DNA of 64,000 bases from Nitrospira sp. (GCA_016784355.1 JADHUV010000001.1:29860-93859), one strand, 5' to 3'; numbered from the stretch's first letter, positions 12,698 through 13,306 are shown. The notes: generated by a model from the letters alone, not told the origin. Translations and numbers: made by a program.

Positions 12698-13306
12698 CTA
12701 ATTTGTCAGAGATAAAAAATGTTTCAAATAATTATCTGTAGCCTGCCTTGTGCTGGCTGCAGCTTCGGAATTTCTTGAATCACTCCACGTATCGTACCAT
12801 TCTGGATGTTGTGTCATACCAAAGAATTCGGTGTTCCAATCTCTATGCGCATATGTATCCTGAATGCTGTGCAGTCCCTTTCCTAGGTGCCCAAGAGCAG
12901 CCTTGCAGTTTCCTGCCTTTGCAAATTTTACAGCTCGCTGAAGTTCACGATCTGCCCATTGTGTTCTAGTATCTCCGCTCCCATTACCTTGATTGAAATG
13001 TCGTGTTTGGTCTCCCATAAGTGGCATCCAATTTGTCCATGGTGCCGTATCAACTGCATTATTGGCAATTGCAATTATTTTTGCTTCATTTGCTGAGAAG
13101 CCCGCCTGTTGCGCCCAAAGGTAGGTGCCGTATCTTGAGTTTCCGATCCCTGAATGTACATCAATAGCCCAACGCCCGTCGGGATCAATCGCATTTACCG
13201 GATTATTTCCTACATAGGCATAGAGATTGACATCCCTTCCATCGAAGCCGATAGGATCTTCTGAGATGTATCTTCTAACTTCAGTATTGTAATGTTTTGT
13301 ATTCAT
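12698..13306 (-). CDS. Orphan Rhs C-terminal cassette: last about 45 residues of the Rhs core plus a 157-aa toxin tip
   Basis: The N-terminus, RRYISEDPIGFDGRDVNLYAYVGNNPVNAIDPDGR, matches the conserved end of the Rhs core. Compare YRFYSPALGRWLNRDPLGEAGGMNLYRFVGNNPVNWIDPWGR in the main Rhs; the DNA is also similar there. A divergent C-terminal domain follows. Confidence 0.8.
   Translation of the reverse strand: MNTKHYNTEVRRYISEDPIGFDGRDVNLYAYVGNNPVNAIDPDGRWAIDVHSGIGNSRYGTYLWAQQAGFSANEAKIIAIANNAVDTAPWTNWMPLMGDQTRHFNQGNGSGDTRTQWADRELQRAVKFAKAGNCKAALGHLGKGLHSIQDTYAHRDWNTEFFGMTQHPEWYDTWSDSRNSEAAASTRQATDNYLKHFLSLTN

Follow-up and report, generated by a model that had tools for sequence, protein, structure and literature searches.

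TseI, Rhs1-Tre23 of P. laumondii and TccC3 have a pair of DPxG motifs where the Rhs core ends and are cut directly after the second. For TseI the cut was placed between L1433 and S1434, directly after ...WVDPLGL, by Edman sequencing, and the site is identical to that of TccC3 (PMC7170923). The toxin of Rhs1 starts at A1343 after D1338-P-L-G-L1342, and the D1338N substitution abolished cleavage and lowered toxicity (PMC8636562). The residue after the mapped cut is Ser in TseI and Ala in Rhs1 (PMC7170923, PMC8636562). Cleavage is required for full toxicity of the three proteins and has been understood only as release, with no role for the N-terminus created. The same two motifs were found in an orphan Rhs open reading frame (ORF) in DNA from Nitrospira sp. 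(GCA_016784355.1 JADHUV010000001.1:29860-93859; the whole stretch of 64,000 nucleotides (nt) is here called the window), where the toxin tip after the second motif begins with Trp. A first-pass annotation of the window had proposed that self-cleavage would expose this Trp as residue 1 of a zinc site resembling those of phospholipase C (PLC) and the S1/P1 nucleases.

The role of such a Trp is described for PC-PLC of Listeria monocytogenes (PlcB, 8CQM), whose mature form begins with W1. This residue has its indole ring buried and binds metal through main-chain atoms; among the W1 substitutions tested only W1F was active, one residue added before W1 abolished activity, and the proenzyme shows no activity (PMC10576769). 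Activation of PlcB depends on a separate protease, Mpl, which removes a propeptide of 26 amino acids (aa), whereas the predicted activator of the orphan tip is the carrier's own Rhs aspartyl autoprotease. Bacillus cereus PLC and the alpha-toxin of Clostridium perfringens (PF00882) are Sec-secreted and, unlike the tip, belong to no polymorphic toxin.

PLC / S1-P1-like Het-C toxin domains in polymorphic toxin systems were described by Zhang et al. (2012; PMC3482391). The Tox-HET-C, Het-C and VWA7_N domains are all-alpha, have a predicted PLC / S1-P1 active site and carry the motif HxxxDxxxH (PMC3482391), which the tip has as well. Delivery of Tox-HET-C by the type II and type VI (T6SS) secretion systems and the Photorhabdus virulence cassette (PVC) system was listed; Rhs repeats were not, and no link was made to an N-terminal Trp or to processing (PMC3482391). 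PLC/P1-like toxin domains, the Rhs cut site and the silencing of PLC by an N-terminal extension are thus already known. Full-text literature searches found no paper linking these three points and none mentioning DUF6765, the Pfam family that the tip resembles; the first-pass annotation, too, had been aware of no earlier description.

Fold and conserved residues of the orphan tip

Numbered from W46 of the ORF, the tip holds W1, H6, D41, H58, H101, D105, H109, H122 and D127, as the first-pass annotation had stated, and the interval that it gave for the tip (12701-13171) is exactly 157 codons, from W46 to N202. The positions that it listed for comparison were correct both for Bacillus cereus PLC (W1, H14, D55, H69, H118, D122, H128, H142 and E146 on the 1AH7 sequence) and for P1 nuclease (W1, H6, D45, H60, H116, D120, H126, H149 and D153 on the 1AK0 sequence).

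When 1.84 billion cluster representatives were scanned in full with HMMER, 308 were related to the tip at E <= 0.001. Among 39 diverse members, aligned with a mean column identity of 35%, H6, T16, D41, H58, G97, H101, Q104, D105 and H109 were invariant, and H122 and D127 were conserved in at least 90%. When the 66 Rhs-attached representatives described below are included, all nine positions are conserved inside the family. The tip has seven His residues; the two outside the listed set, H95 and H151, also fall outside the conserved columns, and H95 is kept only in the closest relatives. Since the listed positions coincide with invariant or near-invariant columns, they represent the conserved core of the family rather than an arbitrary selection of histidines and aspartates.

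An AlphaFold2 model based on the 39-sequence alignment was all-alpha with a mean predicted local distance difference test score (pLDDT) of 95.2 and a predicted template modelling score of 0.91. Residues 1-10 had a pLDDT of 98, so W1 appears to be part of the fold and not of a linker. In a Foldseek search of the PDB with this model, ranks 1-14 were all zinc PLCs, including the alpha-toxins of Clostridium perfringens and C. absonum, with a probability of 0.97 for 1AH7 and a template modelling (TM) score of 0.52 for PlcB, whose all-alpha zinc-PLC fold the tip appears to share. B. cereus PLC and the N-domain of the C. perfringens alpha-toxin (PF00882) were the best matches by fold and profile. The six best matches of the family hidden Markov model (HMM) to PDB sequences were also PLCs (E ~0.06); phmmer, with the tip as single query on these sequences, gave no meaningful match.

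For profile comparison we built a PLC-family alignment of 17 sequences. hhalign matched the tip family to it with 85.5% probability (E 5.7e-6) over the HxxxD helix pair and, in the extended alignment, with 87.6% (E 3.5e-6) over 150 columns. The local alignment (-mact 0.05) was used, as the -glob alignment was poorer and partly shifted. Five ligand pairs were exact between tip and PLC, namely H58-H69, H101-H118, D105-D122, H109-H128 and H122-H142. D41 was two residues off D55 of PLC, D127 paired with D150 and not with E146, and W1 and H6 were not placed by the PLC alignment; of the nine ligands for which a parallel in order and spacing had been drawn, five were aligned exactly. The tip and the PF00882 enzymes have the 'HF' motif after the second His in common. 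In the PF00882 enzymes the second ligand of the W1 metal is a His where helix A begins; in the tip it would apparently be H6. Compared with PlcB the tip is ~80 residues shorter and has D105-x3-H109 in place of D-x5-H.

In Pfam the tip scored 31.1-32.5 bits against PF20551 (DUF6765; cut-off 26.6), the match covering only profile positions 8-41 of 325, and 19 of the 39 family members matched this family. VWA7_N (PF25107), an animal Het-C-like domain, scored 20.9-21.8 bits, below its cut-off of 27.5, and Het-C (PF07217) was not matched in the Pfam scan of the tip. The tip looks like a member of the DUF6765 / Het-C-like branch. With the window protein as query, PF00882 was not matched at E <= 1, and two relatives (P0049 and P0125) matched it below threshold (18.6-18.7 bits against 26.8, ~2e-3).

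The original comparison had included the S1/P1 nucleases, and the W1-x4-H6 spacing is indeed that of P1 and S1. The tip could accordingly be an S1/P1-type nuclease attacking nucleic acid in the cytoplasm of the target, and Zhang et al. left it open whether Het-C-like domains act as nucleases or lipases (PMC3482391). S1 nuclease and SmNuc1 do occur in the Foldseek list, at low rank; hhalign against a P1/S1/TBN1 profile gave 0.1% probability, that is, no signal, as opposed to 85-88% for PLC. The P1/S1 branch is accordingly not the nearest relative, and the S1/P1 half of the proposed likeness, unlike the PLC half, had no detectable sequence support. The partner gene, a small integral membrane protein, and the signal peptide on the partner of a paralogous tip (both described below) also point to the envelope, and we consider a nuclease very unlikely. 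Membership of the zinc PLC superfamily is by contrast highly probable. From these profile and model comparisons we place the tip in the PLC/P1 superfamily, nearer to PLC than to the nucleases and outside PF00882 proper.

The Rhs junction and the residue after the cut

NCBIfam TIGR03696 (RHS-associated core) matched residues 2-44 of the orphan ORF to profile positions 34-75 of 76 (E 2.5e-13). Since the match stops at the end of the profile, R45 is the last residue of the core and W46 the first of the tip; the translation reads MNTKHYNTEVRRYISEDPIGFDGRDVNLYAYVGNNPVNAIDPDGR up to this point and WAIDVHSGIGN...LTN after it. By homology to the mapped sites of TseI and Rhs1, the cut is predicted between R45 and W46.

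The junction was compared among representatives of 50%-identity clusters matching a strict Rhs-end pattern (n = 66). The first His was residue 6 after DPxGx in 66 of 66, and residue 1 was Trp in 58, Tyr in four, Phe in three and Ser in one. The residue preceding the predicted cut (position P1) varied freely (Leu 33, Lys 7, Arg 7, Met 6 and other residues in the rest). Many sequences missed by the strict pattern show the same junction. In the same loci, eight tips belonging to other families have A, T, A, L, D, E, N and L as residue 1, and the contrast in residue 1 between these and the 66 representatives gave a Fisher p of 8.5e-7. As residue 1 varies among the other tips, Trp is no general requirement of the Rhs protease. 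The occurrence of Trp, and next of Tyr and Phe, as residue 1 fits the rule for Listeria PC-PLC, in which only Phe could replace W1. A tip from a Candidatus Veblenbacteria metagenome-assembled genome (MAG; L023, 141-884) starts with WSAYEPKSSPLYKYTHF directly after DPTGN. Here W1 is retained and H6 is missing, and a His is found where helix A begins, a PLC-like arrangement, which suggests that W1 is the constant element and that its His partner may come from either position.

We propose a mechanism that, taken as a whole, we regard as moderately probable. The orphan tip would recombine onto the upstream Rhs gene, which would supply shell and protease. The cut made by the Rhs aspartyl autoprotease would fall after DPDGR and make W46 residue 1. 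By homology to PLC, the free amino group and the carbonyl of W1 would then bind one metal ion together with H6 and D105, and the other metals would be held by D41, H58, H101, H109, H122 and D127. Any uncut form, the 202-aa orphan product included, would be catalytically incomplete. The released tip, for which zinc binding and enzyme activity are predicted, would hydrolyse a phosphodiester of an envelope lipid at the periplasmic face of the inner membrane, where it would be blocked by the two-helix membrane protein of 91 aa encoded next to it. The Rhs self-cut would thus probably complete the metal site besides releasing the toxin, and the mechanism put forward in the first-pass annotation can be read as an established PLC rule moved to a new activating protease.

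That annotation had called the arrangement a zymogen lock. The precedent of PLC supports the incompleteness of the enzyme before the cut. Several Rhs proteins self-cleave while still complexed with the shell (PMC7170923, PMC8636562), and since cleavage would take place in the producer, with the toxin still caged, the lock would act as a requirement of maturation rather than as a delivery-timed trigger. If this is true, Rhs/YD self-cleavage gains a second role, completion of an enzyme, and the carrier and cargo of a polymorphic toxin fit each other to the residue. Precursors left uncut and orphan products translated on their own would be inert, which could explain how spare cassettes are carried safely.

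The main Rhs protein of the window, encoded upstream of the orphan, has a tip that starts with Leu. Invariant in its family are L1, H6, D35, H51, H93, Q96, D97, H103, H120 and D124, and the nine-position pattern is common to both tips, with Leu replacing Trp at residue 1. hhalign of the orphan-tip family against the main-tip family gave 73% (E 3.1e-5) with all shared ligands paired. Foldseek with a model of the main tip (pLDDT 95.8) found no PLC match, and hhalign of its family against PLC was not significant; it is the 73% match that suggests the main tip to be a distant paralog of the orphan tip.

This paralog bears on a different account of the junction, in which the domain is PLC-like, the Trp is a buried hydrophobic anchor, the free amino group is dispensable and cleavage serves release only; the exact register would be inherited since cassettes recombine at the DPxG motif. 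The Leu of the main-tip family would suit an anchor, as would the internal Phe or Trp that non-Rhs relatives keep at the same position with no known cleavage. Nevertheless, the Leu family keeps residue 1 invariant and has H6 in 15 of 15 aligned members; in the L003 relative the His is residue 7. Two other tip families with two members each show identical junctions in the same loci, as inheritance of the boundary would predict, yet the register of the orphan-tip family is kept in 66 of 66 clusters despite ~30-40% identity and many indels elsewhere. The PLC alignment puts H6 on no known ligand; on the other hand, W1 is the mature N-terminus in every solved superfamily member cited, and the loss of PC-PLC activity upon addition of a single residue is hard to reconcile with a dispensable amino group. 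We judge the anchor explanation unlikely and favour a metal site completed by the cut.

Several observations weigh against completion of the metal site by the cut. P1 is Arg here and Leu at all mapped sites. Junctions look fixed also in the two small tip families just mentioned, and the fixed register could in part be an inherited cassette boundary. About one third of the wider family is not Rhs-attached, and there the aromatic residue is internal with no known processing; lipoprotein-like relatives of this kind have a ~230-aa N-domain followed by F-x-x-D-F-H. Such relatives may be processed by other proteases, or the free N-terminus may not be obligatory. With regard to the fold, the Foldseek scores were weak (best E 0.08, TM 0.40-0.52) and the tip domain is 90 residues shorter than PLC. 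The window protein reached no threshold for PF00882 or PF02265, the two families to which the first-pass annotation had pointed. The PLC alignment is unreliable over residues 1-20, where H6 pairs with the non-ligand H7 and PLC H14 pairs with the non-conserved Y17 of the tip.

A broader claim is that Rhs autoproteolysis is a maturation step that creates a catalytic metal ligand across a widespread superfamily of PLC-like tips, including the W1-x4-H6 family (308 representatives) and the L1-x4-H6 paralogs; we consider this about as likely as not. About two thirds were Rhs-attached among the 150 W1-x4-H6 matches listed (of 308). The same logic may extend to relatives with Trp after a Gly-Gly site or after another N-domain. 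In P0071, P0092, P0103, P0121 and the L020 ORF (1214-4249, junction near 1460) the PLC-like domain follows an N-domain of ~85 aa that ends in ...(A)RGLGG or ERELGG, with the Trp directly after Gly-Gly. Peptidase_C39, a domain present in the main Rhs protein of the window, is a protease type that cuts after Gly-Gly.

Partner genes and the predicted target

The 91-aa protein encoded directly downstream of the tip has, by hydropathy, two hydrophobic segments (~11-35 and 50-73) flanking a conserved loop, VLGYGDSGPEWV. Homologous genes of 57-89 aa with the same loop lie directly after the tip in L001, L002, L004-L009, L011, L012 and L015, so that the combination of tip and two-helix membrane protein gene was found in the window and in 11 other loci; a more divergent version follows the tip in L014. 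Where aligned, the homologues are 29-37% identical to the window protein. Pfam gave the 91-aa protein no more than chance-level sub-threshold matches. From this conserved neighbourhood we predict it to be the cognate immunity protein. Basic residues stand at both of its ends, and by the positive-inside rule this suggests that the loop faces the periplasm.

A small integral membrane protein as partner favours an envelope lipid phosphodiester over nucleic acid as the target, and by analogy with PLC the enzyme most likely acts on the phosphodiester of such a lipid. The partner of the main tip is compatible with the same compartment. A 187-aa protein encoded between the main Rhs gene and the orphan is 48% identical (E 8e-69) to the product of the gene after a main-type tip in L003 and probably protects, as an exported immunity protein, against the main tip; its signal peptide indicates periplasmic action. 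NCBIfam had no name for either of the two predicted immunity proteins (91 aa and 187 aa).

Antibacterial lipases are known among T6SS effectors. The type VI lipase effectors (Tle) attack from the periplasmic side and are counteracted by immunity proteins located in the envelope. They are serine or phospholipase D-type lipases, whereas the orphan tip is predicted to be a trinuclear zinc enzyme resembling PLC. For the uncharacterised DUF6765-like tips our analysis offers an activity, a partner and a site of action that can be tested.

Two further small ORFs on the (-) strand lie downstream of the predicted immunity gene. One (11488-11925) encodes 145 aa with a lipoprotein-like signal and the other (11973-12419) 148 aa with an N-terminal hydrophobic helix. 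Both are kept on contigs carrying the identical orphan, and they may be leftover immunity genes. Pfam matched nothing in the 187-, 148- and 145-aa neighbours.

Cassette layout, neighbourhood and distribution

Table 1. Position of the orphan cassette, its motifs and the adjoining main Rhs gene in the window
Feature	Position	Strand	Basis
Orphan Rhs ORF, 202 aa	12698-13306	-	Translation
Toxin tip, W46-N202, 157 aa, all-alpha, zinc-phospholipase-C-like	12701..13171	-	Translation, Pfam, AlphaFold2, Foldseek, hhalign
W46 codon, predicted residue 1 of released toxin	13169..13171	-	Directly after DPDGR; TIGR03696 ends at 45
Rhs core-end remnant, residues 1-45, both DPxG motifs	13172..13306	-	TIGR03696, E 2.5e-13
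DPIGF motif	13244-13258	-	First DPxG of core remnant
DPDGR motif	13172-13186	-	Second DPxG; corresponds to protease signature (PMC7170923, PMC8636562)
H146-x3-D150-x3-H154 (tip H101, D105, H109), predicted core metal-binding helix motif	12845..12871	-	Invariant in 39 sequences; aligned to PLC H118, D122, H128
Predicted cognate immunity gene, 91 aa, two hydrophobic helices	12422..12697	-	Synteny, hydropathy
47-nt homology patch	13182..13228	.	79% identical to 14807-14853 in main Rhs core end; repeat search
Main Rhs protein, 1595 aa; TPR, Peptidase_C39, DUF6531, RHS repeats	14362..19149	-	Pfam, translation
Main Rhs tip, 144 aa, starts LAAPWHFG after DPWGR	14365..14796	-	Family alignment
187-aa signal-peptide protein, predicted main-tip immunity	13772..14335	-	Homology to L003 gene

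The orphan ORF lies ~1 kb downstream of the full-length Rhs gene in the same orientation and retains only the final 45 residues of the core. A stop codon stands two codons 5' of its ATG; with this stop and no YD shell the ORF is not extendable and is an orphan. Homology between core ends is the usual substrate for the swapping of tips, and the 47-nt patch shared with the main Rhs gene is a candidate recombination site for this. No joints indicating tip swapping were found on the metagenome contigs. The count of promoter-like sites (5) was below that of shuffled sequence (11.7), and an Rfam scan of 11300-14500 gave no match.

Just upstream of the orphan (13307-13500, (-) strand) lies a relic, broken by frameshifts and stops, of a gene that resembled the 187-aa ORF and of which the 3' end is left. 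It reads AIHVNVFDPRIK followed by a stop and, further on, NIPIDQLWEGKK, where the 187-aa ORF reads LEVNVFDPRIQWY...NIPIEKLWGN. Judged from this similarity the relic appears to be a trace of an earlier cassette arrangement.

With a degraded gene fragment next to it, neither a YD shell nor a domain for delivery, and sequencing runs holding the region that are all DNA and none RNA, the orphan might itself be a decaying, functionless leftover whose residue pattern is a relic. The orphan ORF and the partner gene are nonetheless intact, all conserved residues of the family are present, and an identical protein was found on 10 contigs from several samples, which together make decay very unlikely. The orphan reads as an intact Rhs toxin-immunity cassette adjoining a full-length rhs gene with which it shares a patch of homology.

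The runs holding the region are marine or seawater metagenomes. Full-length Rhs proteins with this tip were found in MAGs labelled Nitrospira, Nitrospiraceae, delta proteobacterium, Deltaproteobacteria and Acidobacteria, and DUF6765-like tips are common in MAGs labelled Nitrospira, Thermodesulfobacteriota, Deltaproteobacteria, Geobacter, Acidobacteria and Verrucomicrobia.

Contigs broke at 13464-13577 in several marine runs, and word depth rose 4-8 fold there (from 80 to 322-696 in one run), which indicates a multicopy element of ~100 nt. The window contains a single copy of the element, and Rfam did not match it. The window ORFs that were scanned included no T6SS genes; other genes of the window are for polysaccharide synthesis and sensor kinases. 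The Rhs array is adjoined by a gene (8360-11407, (-) strand) for a secreted protein of 1015 aa with thrombospondin type 3 repeats and PKD domains.

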